From Candidatus Latescibacterota bacterium (GTDB lineage: Bacteria > Latescibacterota > UBA2968 > UBA8231), in contig CBDCXV010000006.1 of the NCBI GenBank assembly GCA_965223905.1, forward strand, positions 1-34,581: a DNA stretch of 34,581 nucleotides, written 5' to 3'. Under the pieces are notes generated by a model, which was given only the letters and a program-made list of their open reading frames with translations, did not search any database and was not told the origin of the DNA. Shown piece after piece: positions 858-21,508 of this stretch; the stretch's first letter is position 1, and each line of letters begins with the position of its first letter. The translations under genes were made by a program, and so were the position numbers.

Positions 858-2300
858 ATGCGACGCCACCGCACCATCTACTTCAACGACGCCCGTCACT
901 ACTACCTGTTCGTCTACGATCCGCCGATGCGGATGGAGGATGCCTGGGTGCCGGTCGACGAGGTGGCCGAAACCTCCGTCGACACCTTCAGCTATGGCGT
1001 CTCCCGCGCGGACGGCCTGTTCTACCCGTCGAAGGTCGGACTGCAATGGGGTTCCGACCGCAAGCCGTTCCGGAACGCCTACGAATGGCGCTGCTGGGAA
1101 AACATGCAGAGCCTCGCCGCGCGCGGGCTCGACCCGCTCCAGGTCCTCGTCGACCGGGCTCACGGGAAGGGCATGGATTTTATCGCCAGCCTGCGACTGG
1201 GGGGATATGGCGGCATGAACCCCGATCACAGCGTCGCCAACGGGGGCCGCGGATTCGTCCATGCCGAGATGCGCGACCACCAGCATGCCGTCGTCGAGGA
1301 GCTGGCCGCATGCTACGATGTCGAGGCGGTCGAGCTCGATTTTTCCGCGGCGCCCGGCGGCTGCGCGCACTGTCTCAATCCCGGCGAGGCGGGAGAGCAG
1401 GCACCCGTATTGACGGACTTCGTCCGCGACTGCGCTGCTGCAGTCAGGGGCCGCTCCGGCGAACCGGGACTGCTCGGGGCGCGTGTCTACCCGACGCGAG
1501 AGCTCAACCGGCGCGCCGGGTTGGAAGTCGAAACCTGGCTCGGCGAGGGCCTCGTCGATTTCGTCATTCCGAGCTCCTACTCCTGTTTCGTCCTCGATTC
1601 CCAGATGCCGATCGCCTGGATCGTCGAGGCAGCCCACCGGAACGAGATCTCCGTGTACGGCATCCTGCAGCCCTTTTTCCACGACGGGCGGCGCACCAAC
1701 ACCAATGTCGAGCACGCCACCCCGGAAAAGATGAGAGCCGCGGCCTCCAACTTCTGGCAGGCCGGCGTGGACGGCCTGTGCACGTGGTTCATGGACTGGC
1801 CCCTGCGGGAGGCGGAGCGGAGCATCCTCACCGAGATCGGCGACGCCGACCTGACCAGGGAGGGGAACAAGCATTACTTCCTGCGCCAGCGCGAAGAGAA
1901 GGTGGACAGCTTCGTCTACGGCGCCGAGCTGCCCGTGGCGATCCCCGCGGACCCGGAAGAGACGCACGAGATCTCCTTCACGATCTCCGACGATCCGGGA
2001 AACGAACGCGTCGGCCGCATGCGGCTGAAATTCAACGTCGCCGACCTCGTCCCCCCGGACCGCTTCGAGGTCAGCCTCAACGGCGTCTCCCTCGAGTCGG
2101 AGCCGTGCCGGCGCTCGCCGCGATGGCACGACGCATTCACCGGGGTGTGGATGGAATTCGACCTCAACAAGGTTCGCCCGGTCAGAGGCGCCAACACGCT
2201 GCAGTTCGCGCTGCGGGAGAGACCCAGGGACTTCGGCGGAGAGATCAGGATCGACGACGTCGAGCTCATCGTCGAGTACGATCTGTACGCCGCGAGCTGA
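858..2300 (+). CDS. family 10 glycosylhydrolase-like (GHL10) TIM-barrel protein, 480 aa
   Basis: RTIYFND start, DPLQVLVDRAHGKGMDFIASLR, VELDF, WLGEGLVDFV, GVDG motifs and a C-terminal beta-rich domain; AAAGGTG upstream. Confidence 0.75.
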   Translation: MRRHRTIYFNDARHYYLFVYDPPMRMEDAWVPVDEVAETSVDTFSYGVSRADGLFYPSKVGLQWGSDRKPFRNAYEWRCWENMQSLAARGLDPLQVLVDRAHGKGMDFIASLRLGGYGGMNPDHSVANGGRGFVHAEMRDHQHAVVEELAACYDVEAVELDFSAAPGGCAHCLNPGEAGEQAPVLTDFVRDCAAAVRGRSGEPGLLGARVYPTRELNRRAGLEVETWLGEGLVDFVIPSSYSCFVLDSQMPIAWIVEAAHRNEISVYGILQPFFHDGRRTNTNVEHATPEKMRAAASNFWQAGVDGLCTWFMDWPLREAERSILTEIGDADLTREGNKHYFLRQREEKVDSFVYGAELPVAIPADPEETHEISFTISDDPGNERVGRMRLKFNVADLVPPDRFEVSLNGVSLESEPCRRSPRWHDAFTGVWMEFDLNKVRPVRGANTLQFALRERPRDFGGEIRIDDVELIVEYDLYAAS

Positions 2301-2467
2301 TCTTCCCGAGCTGCCCAGCGCAGAGTGCGGGACGAAACCGGGAGAAACTTGAAAAGCCCTCCACCCGCTTCCCCTTCCGCTTGAATCGGTTCCCGTAAAG
2401 AACCCCGCCGCTGCGTATCGCGACAGGCACCCCCGGCTGTCCCGAGTTCGTCACACCATTCTTCGGC

Positions 2468-2488
2468 CTTACCCTGAGTGGGTAGGGA
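2468..2488. terminator. possible hairpin between convergent units
   Basis: CCTTACCC-TGAGT-GGGTAGGG stem with one G-U pair; no U-tract. Confidence 0.25.
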
Positions 2489-2503
2489 CAGCCACTCGAC
2501 AAG

Positions 2504-2960
2504 TCACCTCAAGGAGTCCTTGATCAACCCCCAGGAATCCTCGCGCACGGCAGAGTCCGAGGCGCCGACCAGAACCCCATCGGCAAAGCCGTCCGCCCAT
2601 CTAAAGCCTGCTCCATTTGCCAAATGCGGGTCCCGAATACGCTTGCCCGGGTCGACATCAAATATCCAGACCTCCAAGCCGATCACTTTGCCTGCCTCCA
2701 GATCCGATACGATGCTCTCTTGCGGATCCTCCCAGGAAAGGGCATCGACGACGTTACGTAGAACTGAATGACCGAGACGGTCGGATTCTCGCCGTACACC
2801 CCACCGCTGCTCTCGCTGTACGGCGGCTTCACCATCCAATCGTAGACCGGATGCCTTATATCGTGCATGATGCTCGCGCCCCAGATCCCCACGTTCGGTC
2901 CCACCGGGATACGCGCGATGGCGTCGTAAGGTTGCGCCAGACTGTAGGTTTCCAAAGCAA
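2504..2960 (-). pseudogene. 5'-truncated, frameshifted divergent paralog of the tandem CBM9-like genes
   Basis: Frame 1 gives AQPYDAIARIPVGPNVG...DWMVKPPYSESSGGVYGENPTVSVIQFYVT. After a 1-nt shift near 2748, frame 2 gives DALSWEDPQESIVSDLEAGKVIGLEVWIFDVD...ADGFADGVLV...SAVREDSWGLIK. Colinear with the C-terminal half of the array proteins. Confidence 0.75.
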
Positions 2961-2989
2961 GCTTCTCCGGCCCATCCAAGGTTCCTGCA

Positions 2990-3085
2990 TCGACTCGGGA
3001 CGGTCCGACACGGAACAGATGCTTCTCCCGTCCGGAGACCAGACAGGATGGTGATCCGCTCCCTCCTGGTCGGTCAGCCTTAACA
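2990..3085 (-). pseudogene. TolB/PD40-repeat fragment
   Basis: RLTDQEGADHHPVWSPDGRSICSVSDR resembles the last repeat of the 7831-8456 gene (KITQGPANDREPAWSPDGRSICFVSNR). Confidence 0.65.
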
Positions 3086-3231
3086 GGGCGAACGGCAAGA
3101 GCGATCATGGAATGTGCCGACTTCAAACGGCGGTTGGACAGGTCCATAGGATGATAGTCCACACCCGCTCGCAGCGGAGAAGCCTCGACCCCGCGATTGG
3201 TGTTCCCTGTATCCTTCGGGACTGGGGGAAA

Positions 3232-4158
3232 CTATTCGAAAGTCGCCTTGATTCGGGCCCAGGAATCGCTTTCGACCGCCGAATTGTCGGATGACAAGCC
3301 ATCTGGCGTAATCAGAACCCCGTCGGCGAAGTAGTCGGCTGACATATACAACAGATCCCTAAAAGATTCGTAGGATGGGGGGACTGCTAGTGGGTGGATG
3401 GTCTCTATCCCAGGCTGGCTATCAACGTCGAATACCTGAATGTTGAAACCGATGATCTTTCCGGCGAACAGATCGGACCCGTCACTGTCTTCCGGATTCC
3501 CCGTCGGTACCAAGCGGTCAAACGGCGTCACGTAGAATTCCGTCACCGAGAAGATGGGGGATCCGCCGACCACTGCGCCGCCTCCGTGTGCAAACGGAGG
3601 CTGACTGAACCAGTCCGGACTCAAATGATACGCATGGGGGGTGAGGCGAACCTGGGAGCCTCCGTCGAAAACCTCCCCGAGCGCATGGAAAACCTGCGCC
3701 TGCCAAGCGTTCTGCAGCCAATCCTCTGGACCTTCTTCGGGGTACACCACGCCGCCCGAGTGGTCTCCGTCAACGGCAAACTCCACCGAGGAGTCGTGGA
3801 AAACCATAACGTAATTCTCATCCTCGCGGTCGAATTCGTTGACGTATACGTCGTCGACCCTCTCCATGGCGAAGAAAATCCGGTCAGTGGCATCGTGCCA
3901 TCCAAGCCAGATGCGAAAATCCATATCAGAAGGATCGTACGAGCCACCATAAGGTTCCGCGAAGTCCAGCGGGGTGAGCGTGGGCTCCCCGACGATGTTT
4001 TCCCAGTCCTCGACGGAACCGTCCGTAACGTCGATCTCGGCGACGTCGCGGTCGGTCAACTGCACGATAGGATAGATGCGGTTCGCGGGTTGGGCGTCTG
4101 CGACAGAGAGGAAGCCTGCCAAGGAGAGGGCGAGCTTGAGCCAAATGGGGTGTTGCAT
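3232..4158 (-). CDS. secreted CBM9/DOMON-like protein, copy A (308 aa)
   Basis: Signal peptide MQHPIWLKLALSLAGFLSVADA|Q; DG..EDW, DSSVEFAVDGDHSGG and GKIIGFNIQVFDVD motifs resemble CBM9-like domains; tail SAVESDSWARIKATFE; AGGAGG RBS. Fold call is from motif recognition. Confidence 0.8.
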   Translation of the reverse strand: MQHPIWLKLALSLAGFLSVADAQPANRIYPIVQLTDRDVAEIDVTDGSVEDWENIVGEPTLTPLDFAEPYGGSYDPSDMDFRIWLGWHDATDRIFFAMERVDDVYVNEFDREDENYVMVFHDSSVEFAVDGDHSGGVVYPEEGPEDWLQNAWQAQVFHALGEVFDGGSQVRLTPHAYHLSPDWFSQPPFAHGGGAVVGGSPIFSVTEFYVTPFDRLVPTGNPEDSDGSDLFAGKIIGFNIQVFDVDSQPGIETIHPLAVPPSYESFRDLLYMSADYFADGVLITPDGLSSDNSAVESDSWARIKATFE

Positions 4159-4222
4159 CCTGTAATCCTCCTGCCAGAGGGGCGATCCCCGGTATCTTGA
4201 ACCGGTCTTTCCAGAGGCATCA

Positions 4223-4252
4223 ACTTTATTAATTCTGCTGTCCGGCTGTCAA
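4223..4252 (-). promoter_or_regulatory. sigma70-like promoter candidate in array spacer
   Basis: TTGACA-N18-TAAAGT upstream of copy A; equivalent sites upstream of B and C read TAGACA. Confidence 0.45.
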
Positions 4253-4399
4253 AAAGAATGGGTCCACCTCATGGAGAAGGTGTGGGGGAGAACCTGTCGA
4301 ACTGGGACAGGTCCATAGGAGGATAGTCCACACCCGCCCGTAGCGGAGAGGCCTCGCCCCGCGATTGGTGTTCCCTGTATCCTTCGGGCTTGGGGGAAA

Positions 4400-5333
4400 C
4401 TATTCGAAAGTCGCCTTGATCCGGGCCCAGGAATCGCTTTCGACCGCCGAATCGTCGGATGACAAGCCATCCGGCGTGACCAGAACCCCGTCGGCGAAGT
4501 CGTCTGCTGGAATCTGAAACAGACTCGCCCAGTAGGGCAATGGAGGTCTTGGGGCTGCTAGATGGTGGATGGTCTCCACCACCCCAGGCTGATCATCAAC
4601 GTCGGATACCTGAATGTTGAAACCGATGATCTTTCCGCCGAACAGATCGGACACGTCACTGTCTTCCGGATCCGCCGTCGGTACAAAGCGGTCAAACGGC
4701 GTCACGTAGAATTCCGTCACCGAGAAAATGGGGGATCCGCCAACCACTGCGCCGCCTCCGTGTGCAAACGGAGGCTGACTGAACCAGTCCGCACTCAAAT
4801 GATACGCATGGGGGGTGAGGCGAACCTGGGAGCCTCCGTCGAAAACCTCCCCGAGCGCATGGAAAATCTGCGCCTGCCAAGGGTTCTTCAGCCATTCCTC
4901 TGGAGATTCCTCGGGGAACACCGGGCCGCCCGAGTGGTCTCCATCAACGGCAAACTCCACCGAGGAGTCGTGGAAACTCATAATAAACAGACTCTCATCC
5001 TCCCGGTCGTGTTCGTTGACGTATACGTCGTCGACCCTCTCCATGGCGAAAAAAATCCGGTCAGTGGCATCGTGCCATCCAAGCCAGATGCGAAAATCCA
5101 TATCAGAAGGATCGTACGAGCCACCATAAGGTTCCGCGAAGTCCAGCGGGGTGAGCGTGGGCTCCCCGACGATGTTTTCCCAGTCCTCGACGGAACCGTC
5201 CGTAACGTCGATCTCGGCGACATCGCGCGGTCAATTGCATTATTGGATAGATGCGGTCCGGGGGTTGGGCGTTTGCGACAGAGAGGAAGCCTGCCAAGGA
5301 GAGGGCGAGCTTGAGCCAAATGGGGTGTTGCAT
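4400..5333 (-). pseudogene. CBM9-like copy B, frameshifted (or sequencing error)
   Basis: Full-length copy with a 2-nt deletion near 5227 (TTG ACC G--CGC GAT vs TTG ACC GAC CGC GAC in C), which separates the signal peptide from the body. Confidence 0.8.
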
Positions 5334-5576
5334 CCTGCAATCCTCCTGTCAGAGGGGCGATCCCCGGTATCTTGAACCGGTCTGCCCAGAGGCATCAACT
5401 TAATGATTCTGCTGTCCGGCTGTCTAAAAGAATGGGTCCACCTCATGGAGAAGGTGGTGGGGGAGAACCTGTCGAACTGGGACAGGTCCATAGGAGGACA
5501 GTCCACACCCGCTCGCAACGGAGAGGCCTCGACCCCGCGATTGGTGGTTCCCTGTATCCTTCGGGCTTGGGGGAAA

Positions 5577-6503
5577 CTATTCGAAAGTCGCCTTGATCCG
5601 GGCCCAGGAATCGCTTTCGACCGCCGAATCGTCGGATGACAAGCCATCCGGCGTGACCAGAACCCCGTCGGCGAAGTCGTCTGCTGAAATCCGGAACAGA
5701 GTCCAAAAATCGTTGGATGGGGGGGCTGCTAGTTGGTGGATGGTCTCCACCCCAGGCTGATCATCAACGTCGCATACGTGAATGTTGAAACCGATGATCT
5801 TTCCGCCGAACAGATCGGACACGTCACTGTCTTCCGGATCCGCCGTCGGTACAAAGCGGTCAAACGGCGTCACGTAGAATTCCGTCACCGAGAAAATGGG
5901 GGATCCGCCAACCACTGCGCCGCCTCCGTGTGCAAACGGAGGCTGACTGAACCAGTCCGCACTCAAATGATACGCATGGGGGGTGAGGCGAACCTGGGAG
6001 CCTCCGTCGAAAACCTCCCCGAGCGCATGGAAAATCTGCGCCTGCCAAGGGTTCTTCAGCCATTCCTCTGGAGATTCCTCGGGGAACACCGGGCCGCCCG
6101 AGTGGTCTCCATCAACGGCAAACTCCACCGAGGAGTCGTGGAAACTCATAATAAACAGACTCTCATCCTCCCGGTCGTGTTCGTTGACGTATACGTCGTC
6201 GACCCTCTCCATGGCGAAAAAAATCCGGTCAGTGGCATCGTGCCATCCAAGCCAGATGCGAAAATCCATATCAGAAGGATCGTACGAGCCACCATAAGGT
6301 TCCGCGAAGTCCAGCGGGGTGAGCGTGGGCTCCCCGACGATATATTCCCAGTCCTCGACGGAACCGTCCGTAACGTCGATCTCGGCGACGTCGCGGTCGG
6401 TCAACTGCATTATTGGATAGATGCGGTCCGGGGGTTGCGCGTTTGCGACAGAGAGGAAGCCTGCCAAGGAGAGGGCGAGCGTGAGCCAAATGGGTTGTTG
6501 CAT
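5577..6503 (-). CDS. secreted CBM9/DOMON-like protein, copy C (308 aa)
   Basis: Same framework, signal peptide, RBS and tail as copy A. Confidence 0.8.
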   Translation of the reverse strand: MQQPIWLTLALSLAGFLSVANAQPPDRIYPIMQLTDRDVAEIDVTDGSVEDWEYIVGEPTLTPLDFAEPYGGSYDPSDMDFRIWLGWHDATDRIFFAMERVDDVYVNEHDREDESLFIMSFHDSSVEFAVDGDHSGGPVFPEESPEEWLKNPWQAQIFHALGEVFDGGSQVRLTPHAYHLSADWFSQPPFAHGGGAVVGGSPIFSVTEFYVTPFDRFVPTADPEDSDVSDLFGGKIIGFNIHVCDVDDQPGVETIHQLAAPPSNDFWTLFRISADDFADGVLVTPDGLSSDDSAVESDSWARIKATFE

Positions 6504-6744
6504 CCTGTAATCCTCCTGTCAGAGGGGCGATTCCCGGTATCTTGAACCGGTCTGTCCAGAGGCATCAACTTTATTAATTCTGCTGTCCGGCTGTCTAAAA
6601 GAATGGGTCCACCTCATGGGGAAGGTGCGGGGGAGAACCTGTCGAACTGGGACAGGTCCATAGGAGGATAGTCCACACCCGCCCGTAGCGGAGAGGCCTC
6701 GCCCCGCGATTGGTGTTCCCTGTATCCTTCGGGCTTGGGGGAAA

Positions 6745-7668
6745 CTATTCGAAAGTCGCCTTGATCCGGGCCCAGGAATCGCTTTCGACCGCCGAATCGT
6801 CGGATGACAAGCCATCCGGCGTGACCAGAACCCCGTCGGCGAAGTCGTCGGCTGACATATACAACAGATGCCCATAAGATTCGTGGGATGGGGGGACTGC
6901 TAGTTGGTGGATGGTCTCTATCCCAGGCTGATCATCAACGTCGAACACCTCAATGTTGAAACCGATGATCTTTCCGGCGAACAGATCGGACACGTCACTG
7001 TCTTCCGGATCCCCCGTCGGTACCAAGCGGTCAAACGGCGTCACGTAGAATTCCGTCACCGAGAAGATGGGGGATCCGCCAACCACTGCGCCGCCTCCGT
7101 GTGCAAACGGAGGCTGAATGAGCCATTCCGCACTCAATAGATACGCATGGGGGACGAGGCCAACCTGGGAGCCCCCGTCGAAAACCTCCCCGAGCGCATT
7201 AAAAACCTGCACCTGCCAGACCCGCTCCTCTGGAGATTCCTCGGGGAACACCGCGCCGCCCGAGTGGTCTCCGTCAACGGCAAACTCCACCGAGGAGTCG
7301 TGGAAAACCATAACCTCATTCTCATTCTCATCCTCGCGGTCGAATTCGTTGACGTATACGTCGTCGACCCGCTCCATGGCGAAGAAAATCCGGTCAGTGG
7401 CATCGTGCCATCCAAGCCAGATGCGAAAATCCATATCAGAAGGATCGTACGAGCCACCAAAGGGTTCCGCGAAGTCCAGCGGGGTGAGCGTGGGCTCCCC
7501 GACGATGTTTTCCCAGTCCTCGACTGAACCGTCCGTAACGTCGATCTCGGCGACGTCGCGGTCGGTCAACTGCACGATAGGATAGATGCGGTCCGGGGGT
7601 TGGGCGTCTGCGACAGAGAGGAAGCCTGCCAAGGAGAGGGCGAGCTTGAGCCAAATGGGTTGTTGCAT
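6745..7668 (-). CDS. secreted CBM9/DOMON-like protein, copy D (307 aa)
   Basis: Same framework, signal peptide, RBS and tail as copy A. Confidence 0.8.
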   Translation of the reverse strand: MQQPIWLKLALSLAGFLSVADAQPPDRIYPIVQLTDRDVAEIDVTDGSVEDWENIVGEPTLTPLDFAEPFGGSYDPSDMDFRIWLGWHDATDRIFFAMERVDDVYVNEFDREDENENEVMVFHDSSVEFAVDGDHSGGAVFPEESPEERVWQVQVFNALGEVFDGGSQVGLVPHAYLLSAEWLIQPPFAHGGGAVVGGSPIFSVTEFYVTPFDRLVPTGDPEDSDVSDLFAGKIIGFNIEVFDVDDQPGIETIHQLAVPPSHESYGHLLYMSADDFADGVLVTPDGLSSDDSAVESDSWARIKATFE

Positions 7669-7830
7669 CCTGCAATCCTCCTGTCAGAGGGGCGATCCCC
7701 GGTATCTTGAACCGGTCGGCATCCCCAGCGTTGCGATCCACATGGGTTCATTTTCTGACCCTTGCGACATTCTTTCCTGTGAGCGACTGACCGGTCGACC
7801 CACCCGGACTGTCGTTCTTGCGGATTCAGC

Positions 7831-8456
7831 TCAAGGCTCTATGGCTCTAATGGCCCCCTCAACAGGGCGCGCTATCCACTGGGAGAACGCTTCCAGGACG
7901 GTCTCGCGTCTGTTGGAGACGAAGCAGATACTCCTTCCGTCAGGAGACCACGCCGGCTCCCTGTCGTTGGCCGGACCCTGCGTGATCTTGTTCACAGCCG
8001 ATCCATCAGCGGCGATACGGTAGATGTCGGAACTACCGCTTCGGTTCGATGCGAAAGCGATCTCCAAACCGTCAGGAGACCACGACGGCGCTTCGTCGCG
8101 AGCAGGATGATTACTGACATTGATCACTTCGCCGCCGTCGGCGTTGACAATACAGATTTCGCTTTCCCCGTAGCGGGTAGTCTGGAAGGCTATCCAGGAT
8201 CCGTCAGGAGACCACGACGGGCGCATGTCGAAGCTTTCGTGGTTGCTCAGGTTGCGGACATGCAATCCGTTCGTGTCAGCTGTGTAGACCTCGAAGTTAC
8301 CATCGCGTGCCGTGACGAACGCGATTCGACGGCCATCAGGGGACCATACGGGCGAAAATCCATCGCACACAATGCGCCTTGTCGTTTCCTGGGAAGCACC
8401 TTCAGGCCCAGGATCAGGCCGCAGGAGATCAGTACTGCAGGCTTGCGGGAGGTCAT
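7831..8456 (-). CDS. TolB-like PD40-repeat beta-propeller protein, probably frameshifted after its signal peptide
   Basis: Four PxWSPDG repeats. ATG at 8456 (GGAAGGT upstream) encodes signal-like MTSRKPAVLISCGLILGL, which joins EGASQETT... only with a 1-nt shift near 8403. Confidence 0.8.
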
Positions 8457-8555
8457 ACCTTCCAAACCGCCTTGCAGTGAGAGGAATCACCCCGGCTTCG
8501 CCCCGACCTCCCAACCTTTCCCAAGCACTAACCGGTGGTGACCAATGGTGAGGGC

Positions 8556-8591
8556 ATGATAGAGGGGGGGGGGGGGGGAGCGTGAAGTCAA
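8556..8591 (-). promoter_or_regulatory. sigma70-like promoter with a C15 homopolymer in the -35/-10 spacer
   Basis: Minus strand reads TTGACT-TCACGCT-C15-TC-TATCAT; spacer 24 nt; G15 on plus at 8564-8578. Confidence 0.55.
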
Positions 8592-9009
8592 GGATTTTTC
8601 AGTCATGTGACAATCCAGTAAAATATCCCGTCGGAAGGGCCGCCCTCGCGGCTGCCGGCTCGCAAGGGGCGTCCGAGTAAAGTCGGGGTATGGGGAAGGA
8701 AGTAATGTCCCCAGAATCCGCCTCCTGAATGCCCCGGGGTCTTAACCGACGAAGATCGCCCCGTCCGGCCAGTCGTCGTCGAGCATACAATCTGCCAGGC
8801 CCGAGAGACCGGTGTATTGCGGATGAGGTTACTAAAATTACGCTTGCTGAATTATGTATATATCACGGGGAGCACCCTAAAGTTGACATCACACCCCTCT
8901 GTATCAGGCGGAAAATTGTCAACTATTGACCGCTCCTGGTAATAAGTCCCGATGCCCTCCTTGGGGAACGATCAGACCTCGGCGCACTTGTGGCCTGGTG
9001 ACACGGCCG

Positions 9010-19976: not shown

Positions 19977-20723
19977 TCAACCGAAACGCCTGAGATCCGC
20001 CTTGTACTCCCAGCCGAGAAGCTCCCTGGCGCGGTCGACGTCGCAGGTGGCCGCGGCTTCCGGCGTCCCGGCGGCGTGGAAGACGTCGAATTGGACGCTG
20101 TCCGTCTCCAGCGCCAGCCGGCACCCCTCGGCGAGGTCGTGGCGGCAGACCCAGCTTTCGCTGAACCCCGTCATCGGCGTGCCCCCCTTGTTGATCCCGA
20201 GGCGCGCGTCGACGATCGAGCACGGGCGCAGCACGATGATCGACAGCCCCTTGCCCTCGTGAAACTGCCGGCACATCTCCTCCTGCAGGCGCTTGGTGAC
20301 CGCGTAGAGACTGGCGTCGGGGCGCCTTACCTCAGGTCCGAAGAAGATCCCCTCCGGGTGCCTCGTCTGCGCCGAGCCGACGTGGACGACGCGCGCGATG
20401 CCTTTGCGGTCGCAGATCTCGAGCACGTTCCACAGGCCCTTCAGGTTGATGGTGAAGGGCAGGACGTCGCCGTCGCGGTACTCCCCTCCGAGCATGGCGA
20501 GGTGAATGACGCCGTCGATTCCGTCGAGGGCGCTCTCGACTGTCGCGAAGTCGGAGATGTCCCCGTGAACGATCTCCCCCTGCGTCCACTCGCCGTCGAT
20601 CTCCGCGGACTGCTCCCAGGCCTCCGGGCCGGAGTCGAAGGCGCGGATATCGTGCATGCCCTCCAGGTTTGCCAGCACCGCCCGGCCTACCCAGCCGGCA
20701 GCGCCCAGTACCAAGACTTTCAC
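19977..20723 (-). CDS. NAD(P)-dependent epimerase/dehydratase-family SDR (uronate dehydrogenase-like)
   Basis: GAAGWVG, GDISD, VIHLA and YAVTK (YxxxK) motifs. Confidence 0.88.
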   Translation of the reverse strand: MKVLVLGAAGWVGRAVLANLEGMHDIRAFDSGPEAWEQSAEIDGEWTQGEIVHGDISDFATVESALDGIDGVIHLAMLGGEYRDGDVLPFTINLKGLWNVLEICDRKGIARVVHVGSAQTRHPEGIFFGPEVRRPDASLYAVTKRLQEEMCRQFHEGKGLSIIVLRPCSIVDARLGINKGGTPMTGFSESWVCRHDLAEGCRLALETDSVQFDVFHAAGTPEAAATCDVDRARELLGWEYKADLRRFG

Positions 20724-20791
20724 CTCATTCCTCCTTGCTTGCCCGGGTCAGGGGCATAAGCTACGTTGGGAAACAGGCGTCAGACAGCAGC

Positions 20792-20868
20792 GCACCCATA
20801 GCTCAATTGGATAGAGCATCTGGCTTCGGACCAGAGGGTTGGGGGTTCGAGTCCTCCTGGGTGCGCCA
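20792..20868 (+). tRNA. tRNA-Arg(UCG)
   Basis: 77 nt GCACCCA...TGGGTGC-G-CCA; anticodon arm TCTGG-CT TCG GA-CCAGA; T-arm GGGGG-TTCGAGT-CCTCC. Confidence 0.96.
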
Positions 20869-20887
20869 TTTTTTTGGCCCTTCCGCG

Positions 20888-21508
20888 ATGAAACTCGCCC
20901 GCTTTCTACTGGTCCTTTTCTGGTGCTGGCCGCTGACTGTCTCGGGGCAGGAATCGGCAATCTCCGGTGTGTGGGAGCTGCATTCCGAGGATGGCTTCGG
21001 ATCGGTTTCGCTGCGCCTGCAGACTTCGGCAGACGGCAGCCTTTCCCTGAAAGCCACGGGGAGAGCCGGCCCCGAGCTGCTCGACCTGGTCGGGGATGAG
21101 CTCGCCTTCCTTCCGGACAGTCTCGTGGCCGCGGTCGACGGCGCCGGTACCTGGCGGGCGGACGGCGATTCCCTGCGCATCTCCTGGTCGCAGCTGGACA
21201 TCGCCGTAAACGGCGTGCCGATTGCCCGTTTCATCGACGCGCTCGTCGCCGATCTCGCGGACTCCCTGGCAGATGATTTCCAGCTGGAGGAAGAGGAGCT
21301 CGAAGCGTTCCGGGAGTCGGTGGCGAGCATGCTGCTCGGCCAGCTCTCCGGCCTGCTGTTCCTCGACGATTCCGTGGCCGCCCGCTTCAGCGTCGAAGAG
21401 GACCGCCTGACGCTGACGACCTCGGATGGCTCGGTGACGCTCTATCGTGCCGGCGGGGACAGCGCGGTCCGGACCGCCAGCTGGGGCCGCGTCAAGATCA
21501 CACGATAG
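20888..21508 (+). CDS. secreted hypothetical protein with C-terminal SWGRVK tail, 206 aa
   Basis: Signal peptide MKLARFLLVLFWCWPLTVSG|Q; lipocalin-like IxGxW start; tail SAVRTASWGRVKITR. Confidence 0.75.
   Translation: MKLARFLLVLFWCWPLTVSGQESAISGVWELHSEDGFGSVSLRLQTSADGSLSLKATGRAGPELLDLVGDELAFLPDSLVAAVDGAGTWRADGDSLRISWSQLDIAVNGVPIARFIDALVADLADSLADDFQLEEEELEAFRESVASMLLGQLSGLLFLDDSVAARFSVEEDRLTLTTSDGSVTLYRAGGDSAVRTASWGRVKITR

Follow-up and report, generated by a model that had tools for sequence, protein, structure and literature searches.

The stretch of DNA analysed here (the window; 34,581 nt) is a whole contig, C6, of an 11-contig, 7.9-Mb genome (G000; 93.6% complete, 5.1% contaminated). 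At 3136-7717 it holds a tandem array of four ~1170-nt units, each with one minus-strand gene for a protein of ~308 aa with a predicted CBM9 fold. Three of these genes are intact: A (3232-4158; CBM9-like, 308 aa), C (5577-6503; 308 aa) and D (6745-7668; 307 aa), which is transcriptionally the first of the array. The remaining gene, B (4400-5333), is of a 311-aa type with a frame disrupted by a deletion of 2 nt at ~5227; B-type proteins P0123 and P0124 are intact on other contigs. The proteins share a conserved framework with variable segments V0 to V4, and C carries B-type V0-V3 together with a C-type V4. A broken remnant of a more distant family member lies at 2504-2961, and a gene of PD40 (TolB-like) repeats (7831-8514) lies upstream of the array, both on the minus strand. 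Sigma70-like promoter sequences, as consensus matches only, precede C (6568-6597; 9/12) and A (4223-4252; 10/12) on that strand. The conserved 3' intergenic element of the repeat unit (5445-5576, minus strand) has small hairpins; with its equivalents after A, B, D, E and G, it is marked by a 9-bp hairpin and a pyrimidine-rich stretch, has no Rfam match, and is possibly a small RNA or a processing signal.

Three further close paralogs were found outside the window, E and F on contig C1 and G on contig C11, and a profile search of the genome returned 73 family loci, of which 38 are intact, 16 split and 18 partial, B being the remaining one. Relatives are labelled Latescibacterota or Gemmatimonadota, which makes Latescibacterota the probable phylum of the genome; among the sequencing-run matches, many are labelled sponge or coral metagenome, each run with a small share. 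A duplicate (97% identity) of the PD40 gene's 3' part and of the region upstream of D (7660-8278) lies before E (C1:94480-95095); gene and array thus seem to have been duplicated as one. The E-F unit is split by a 1575-nt IS-like element (L029, C1:96154-97728; weak UPF0236 match), of which the genome has 14 copies at 99.8-100% identity. A promoter-bearing piece of the repeat unit (~45 nt; 6574-6615) recurs at C11:485844, C11:96672 and C10:1619998 without a close paralog. A run of 15 Gs upstream of the PD40 gene (8564-8578), one of 11 genomic G/C runs of at least 14, may be either a phase-variable tract or a product of the assembly.

The family is predicted to have the CBM9 beta-sandwich fold. 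An alignment of 81 sequences folded to a beta sandwich (predicted structure; mean pLDDT 82), which Foldseek matched to 7nwn (E 8e-9) and VIA to 1i82_A (Z 18.1, rmsd 2.5, 188 of 189 residues aligned) and 4jpq_B (Z 16.4), with the following rows at 10.9 and below. Identity to CBM9 structures is 11-14%. None of the 81 members match Pfam CBM9_1 (PF06452) at E 0.1, and sequence searches of Pfam, NCBIfam and PDB returned no meaningful family. Profile-profile comparison with 10 PF06452-positive proteins was weak (local probability 4-14%, global 12-72%), and ESM Atlas neighbours at 0.92-0.93 have CBM9_1 in 18% and 65% of members. An excerpt of a CBM9 study (PMC8280721) places one of the two CBM9 clamp aromatics on the helix that connects strands 4 and 5 and the other on the loop leading into the last strand. 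A weak profile alignment pairs F121 of C with the aromatic that precedes the D.VE motif, and it sets V4 against the last loop. Judging by topology and this alignment, V1 would end at the first clamp site and V4 would fill the second; given these positions, V4 plausibly shapes the predicted binding site, and the loops would line a putative glycan-binding site.

The proteins are probably secreted, based on an N-terminal hydrophobic stretch recognized by eye and a C-terminal tail motif. In the genome, 58 ORFs terminate in this motif, among them 38 of the family, and the motif is never found at a distance of 30 residues or more from an ORF end, a distribution suggestive of a sorting signal. The 20 non-family ORFs with the same ending (20510-21508 in the window plus 19 others) make it a candidate lineage-specific sorting signal.

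Within the array, copies B and C are identical over 563 nt spanning V0-V3 (B 4611-5173, C 5779-6341, both minus strand; in C, V1 at ~6141-6188, V2 at ~6027-6092 and V3 at ~5949-5993). The first-pass annotation of this DNA had proposed identity over more than 500 nt, at about 4617-5170 and 5785-6340; exact extension to 563 nt without a difference bears this out, and the proposed limits were correct to a few bases. It had also described the V4 regions (B 4510-4610, C 5687-5778, minus strand) as differing in sequence and length, and indeed they differ by substitutions and in-frame indels, B being longer by 9 nt. Beyond V4, B and C are again identical for 140 nt (B 4370-4509, C 5547-5686, minus strand), of which 135 nt are identical in D too; B 4284-4504 also equals D 6629-6849 over 221 nt. 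Across 1182 aligned columns, V4 holds 20 of the 43 B/C difference events, indels included. Another 14 differences lie in the 5' part (B 5174-5405), so a simple recent duplication does not account for B and C.

An even spread of B/C differences had been named beforehand as a refutation, and the spread is uneven. Uniform placement of the 43 events never produced a run of at least 563 nt (0/100000; mean longest run 115), and placement of just the 23 events outside V4 gave the same result (0/100000). Because the framework is conserved in all copies, we also confined a permutation test to polymorphic sites (191 ungapped coding sites, seven close paralogs). B equals C at 95 consecutive sites, which none of 10000 permutations equalled; the longest matching run in the next best of the 21 paralog pairs is 20.

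To trace the V4 alleles, we compared loop combinations across 63 full-length rows out of 86 aligned (seven from the genome and 56 database proteins, which are related strains rather than independent samples). The V4b of B is exact in six of the 63 rows, while that of C is exact in two and near-identical in four more. The V4 of C recurs exactly, with the same peptide, in P0006, and P0003 and P0127-P0129 have near-exact versions; V1-V3 are different in all of these (V0-V3 in P0006). The V4 of B occurs on other V1-V3 in P0126. The V4 region of B was also found verbatim in Logan contigs, with no differences in three of four runs (155, 125 and 158 nt) and two in the fourth; the runs belong to four studies, and the source sample might be among them. 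Between B and C, ~6 of 15 synonymous V4b sites differ, a count that depends on the alignment. By these comparisons, both V4 types are old, pre-existing alleles rather than fresh mutation.

Since both alleles occur elsewhere, the earlier suggestion that V4 is locally hypermutated is not supported. Variable regions of diversity-generating retroelements (DGRs) often lie near the 3' end of a gene, and here the differences are packed into ~100 nt close to the gene's 3' end in a genome with six reverse-transcriptase (RT) matches. Two of these matches are partial; of the other four, which were typed, three are nearest to group II intron RTs and one to retron Ec67; the window has no RT, and the genome (93.6% complete) gave no Avd match. 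The remark that the changes are not adenine-restricted, and so not a standard DGR pattern, was right: A is involved in eight of 19 V4 substitutions in the codon alignment (coding strand), in no loop comparison do more than 44% of mismatches have A on either side, and loop queries against the assembly turned up no template repeat and matched only the seven full-length paralogs. The same search gave no sign of the short silent cassettes with V4 sequences that had been proposed as a thing to look for, and it found no second copy of C's V4 in the genome (93.6% complete). Verbatim recurrence, indels and synonymous changes all argue against a recent B/C duplication followed by local hypermutation, DGR-type or other, an explanation that we regard as scarcely credible.

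We hold with high confidence that homologous recombination among paralogs made C, whichever the order of events. The bounds of the identical tract lie in conserved framework, as expected of homologous recombination. The genome has two full-length recA genes over the family cut-off (C10:1781341-1782309 and C9:611396-612367), and mutS is intact, so no loss of mismatch repair is seen that would explain frequent exchange.

Our preferred reading, to which we give a probability of roughly 0.55, is that C is a recent mosaic produced by a B-to-C conversion tract that stopped at V4. C rather than B is called the mosaic because the pairing of B's V1-V3 with its V4b recurs elsewhere, while C's combination is found only here. 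B's V1-V3 block occurs in six of the 63 rows, five of them with B's V4b (B, P0001, P0123, P0124 and P0125), and C alone has it with C's V4b (1/63, known from this assembly only). The B haplotype is thus stable and widespread and C's combination new, and B is the likely donor of the shared tract. In the conversion reading, the presumed donor adjoins C, and C keeps its own 5' end. Of the possibilities raised in the first-pass annotation, gene conversion that homogenised the rest but spared V4 is the best supported, by the tract statistics and the loop-combination data.

In the proposed sequence of events, an older C gene would have had the C-type V4 with other V0-V3 loops. Gene conversion from the neighbouring B would then have overwritten ~0.4-0.6 kb of C, with crossovers in near-invariant framework, roughly at C 6219-6341 on one side and 5779-5841 on the other, and the tract would have ended at the divergent V4. 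We infer that the transfer ran from B to C and depended on RecA. Over longer times, the framework would keep the fold and provide the homology, point mutation and indels would slowly create loop alleles, and recombination would reassort them, so that the family would form a repertoire of binders.

The reverse order is possible but doubtful: position C would first have become B-like, by tandem duplication or a conversion of ~800 nt, and then have received the C-type V4. The exchange would have been a double crossover that placed a 90-145-nt patch from a since-lost paralog or another strain, and we rate this version as tentative too. C is identical to B to either side of V4 (563 and 140 nt), which fits a V4 patch equally well; moreover, the five other carriers of a C-type V4 differ from C in the framework just after and before V4. 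V4 distance is also nearly uncorrelated with that of the other loops (Spearman 0.03-0.18: V3 0.03, V0 0.04, V2 0.14, V1 0.18; 595 non-independent pairs from 35 proteins, a set without P0013, P0018 and P0022, which are near copies of the genome's genes, or the long P0028 and P0029), which indicates that V4 moves as a module. Against this order, the genome (93.6% complete) has no donor of a C-type V4, the 14 differences at C's 5' end against none in the tract call for one more event, and the 3' stretch is common to D too and thus not specific to B and C. The B-to-C conversion reading, for its part, needs a second, 3' homogenisation event, and D shows such homogenisation too.

We also considered an artefact of assembly or polishing, in which C would have been overwritten or made chimeric, within the conserved framework, by reads that belong to B or to another strain. 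Several features of the assembly speak for it: C's combination is unique to this assembly, the 2-nt deletion in B (54 nt beyond the 563-nt tract) is unexplained, 16 of the 73 family loci are split, and among the pieces listed in four runs no Logan contig bridges V3 to V4 of C. In addition, the bin contains overlapping haplotype contigs. C6 26435-32468 is 99.2% identical to contig C4 1-6033, and C6 33667-34581 is 96% identical to C4 10082-10996; by this overlap, the bin holds two haplotypes of the C6/C4 region, and thus E, F and G may lie on a different chromosome from A-D. The V1 region is less informative, since the gaps in Logan contigs there (no cover at B 4984-5140 in three of four runs and none at C 6083-6239) prove nothing in either direction. 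On the other side, both V4 alleles are real, and shared tracts with a different V4 are seen in another genus and in the pair P0006 and P0031 as well. All 27 ORFs of the related genome G002 that match C6 at 85% or more do so unbroken (overlapping shadow ORFs included), which indicates that C6 is not indel-rich. Altogether, we consider such an artefact distinctly unlikely.

The B/C pair is one case of loop shuffling that, on the sequence comparisons, runs through the family and recurs in another genus (G012). In the seven paralogs, the 61 informative sites form incompatible pairs in 41% of cases, and neighbouring sites are more compatible than chance (PHI-type p = 0.0005). The 63 rows contain 53 distinct six-loop combinations, and 11 of 35 V4b alleles pair with more than one V1-V3 block, some of these blocks only slightly different. 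P0006 and P0031, whose contigs are equal in length, have V0-V3 in common and differ in V4. G012 has at least 15 full-length copies in four regions with the same framework/loop design and a recombination signal of its own (p = 0.0002, 15 copies); there, two adjacent copies are identical over 239 nt across V1-V2 and different in V3 and V4. These four tandem clusters (G012:C2, L021-L024), which also include several broken copies, are better suited to breakpoint mapping than the array in the window.

The loops also differ from the framework in their apparent constraint, pN/pS being 0.26 for the framework (95% CI 0.14-0.45) and 1.36 for the loops (1.00-1.97). These values no more than suggest positive selection on the loops, because variability was the criterion by which the loops were delimited, the lower bound reaches 1.00, and ratios of this kind are inflated by recombination; selection would presumably favour loop diversity. 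In copy G (C11:1964383-1965315), an 18-nt insertion in V0 resembles a local tandem duplication, which may be one route to new loop lengths.

The array is not conserved in place: between the same flanks, G002 has other family members and IS remnants (L047 3187-6435, with the family members on the opposite strand). Further intergenic sites with swapped cargo were found at L026 4024-5430 (G002), L031 2364-4333 (G001) and C10:324853-326935 (G000), and the close copy of G002 occupies the site of unrelated gene pairs in G000 and G001. A scan of metagenome contigs returned two loci with 16-residue matches only, and a scan of genome contigs returned two loci, one of them a true relative.

Could a dedicated system, such as a site-specific recombinase, integron-like cassettes or a pilE-G4-like cis signal, move the loop modules? 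The modularity itself would fit (53 combinations in 63 rows, and V4b alleles with several V1-V3 blocks), as would the same pattern in independent expansions, the presence of family genes at sites where cargo is swapped between species, and two G4-type motifs upstream of the PD40 gene. However, no recombinase family was found among 19 window ORFs scanned in one search or nine scanned in another, and no integron integrase passed the cut-off (TIGR02249: best score 127, cut-off 265 bits). The assembly yielded no silent cassettes, and G4 motifs occur at 97 per Mb genome-wide, with none inside the array. No Rfam match was found in 2300-9000, and the search for short flanking repeats of the tprK type gave nothing specific; a 5-nt word lies near both V4 edges in B and C, the two copies compared, without a control. 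Entire haplotypes, the B type among them, stay the same over several contigs, which indicates that shuffling is slow. We therefore judge programmed shuffling very unlikely. A more far-reaching idea, that secreted CBM9-fold binders trade five or six binding-site loops between copies fast and possibly under regulation, in an antibody-like diversification, is speculative and rather improbable.

Reshuffling of hypervariable loops by gene conversion between paralogous genes is a familiar mechanism in Neisseria opa and comparable antigens of pathogens. Excerpts on Neisseria opa genes (PMC13183285, PMC4534519) describe complete copies with a conserved framework and hypervariable loops, diversity that arises mostly as existing loop alleles are shuffled by recombination and gene conversion, and near-identical pairs inside one genome. 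Here, too, several full-length copies combine a conserved framework with hypervariable segments, and existing loop alleles are reassorted by recombination; this shuffling works as in opa, on an unrelated fold. Opa is, in those excerpts, an outer-membrane adhesin of a human pathogen with phase variation by CTCTT repeats, whereas the present proteins are predicted CBM9-like sandwiches with five to six variable segments, encoded in tandem arrays. Membership of the Opa family was rejected given the CBM9-like fold, the lack of a Pfam Opa match and the lack of a simple repeat array in the 5' ends of the genes.

The vlsE/vls, tprK and Anaplasma msp2 systems, as outlined in an excerpt (PMC4534519), are patchwork genes with tracts of hundreds of bases and variable parts between invariant regions, features shared by the tract and the several variable regions described here. 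In that account they pair one expression site with silent cassettes or short donor sites, whereas all donors found here are full-length genes, two of them with a promoter consensus of their own. A cassette-to-expression-site system of this kind (vlsE, tprK, msp2, pilE) was rejected, as no silent partial cassettes or short donor sites were found in the assembly. The promoter matches before A and C argue against a single expression locus, and B does not qualify as a standing silent cassette, since P0123 and P0124 are intact B-type proteins.

CBM9 modules such as those of T. maritima Xyn10A (CBM9-2, 1i82) and C. kristjanssonii (CBM9.3, 7nwn), known here from an excerpt (PMC8280721), share the predicted fold, but they are appended to enzymes, whereas the present proteins stand alone, have long insertions and are only 11-14% identical to them.

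Tandem gene arrays commonly undergo concerted and birth-and-death evolution. The present family resembles such arrays in its identical tracts between array copies (B/C 563 nt, B/D 221 nt), its many broken copies and its differences in copy number and location between species. Unlike in concerted evolution, homogenisation is confined to the framework, and loop alleles are kept and reassorted as a combinatorial repertoire.

The B/C case itself is one ordinary event of a process that runs through the family. The novelty lies in the setting, namely an unnamed family with a predicted CBM9 fold and dozens of copies in an uncultured lineage, and a pattern repeated in separate expansions of two genera; we found no description of this family or of its loop shuffling in the open-access literature. 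Because the intact P0124 and C differ essentially only in V4, they provide a natural single-loop swap for the role of V4 in binding, and a scaffold that tolerates five to six variable loops may interest binder engineering. If the antibody-like diversification were real, B and C would represent a newly formed pair of variants that differ in a single loop, and cells of one population would display different repertoires of binders.
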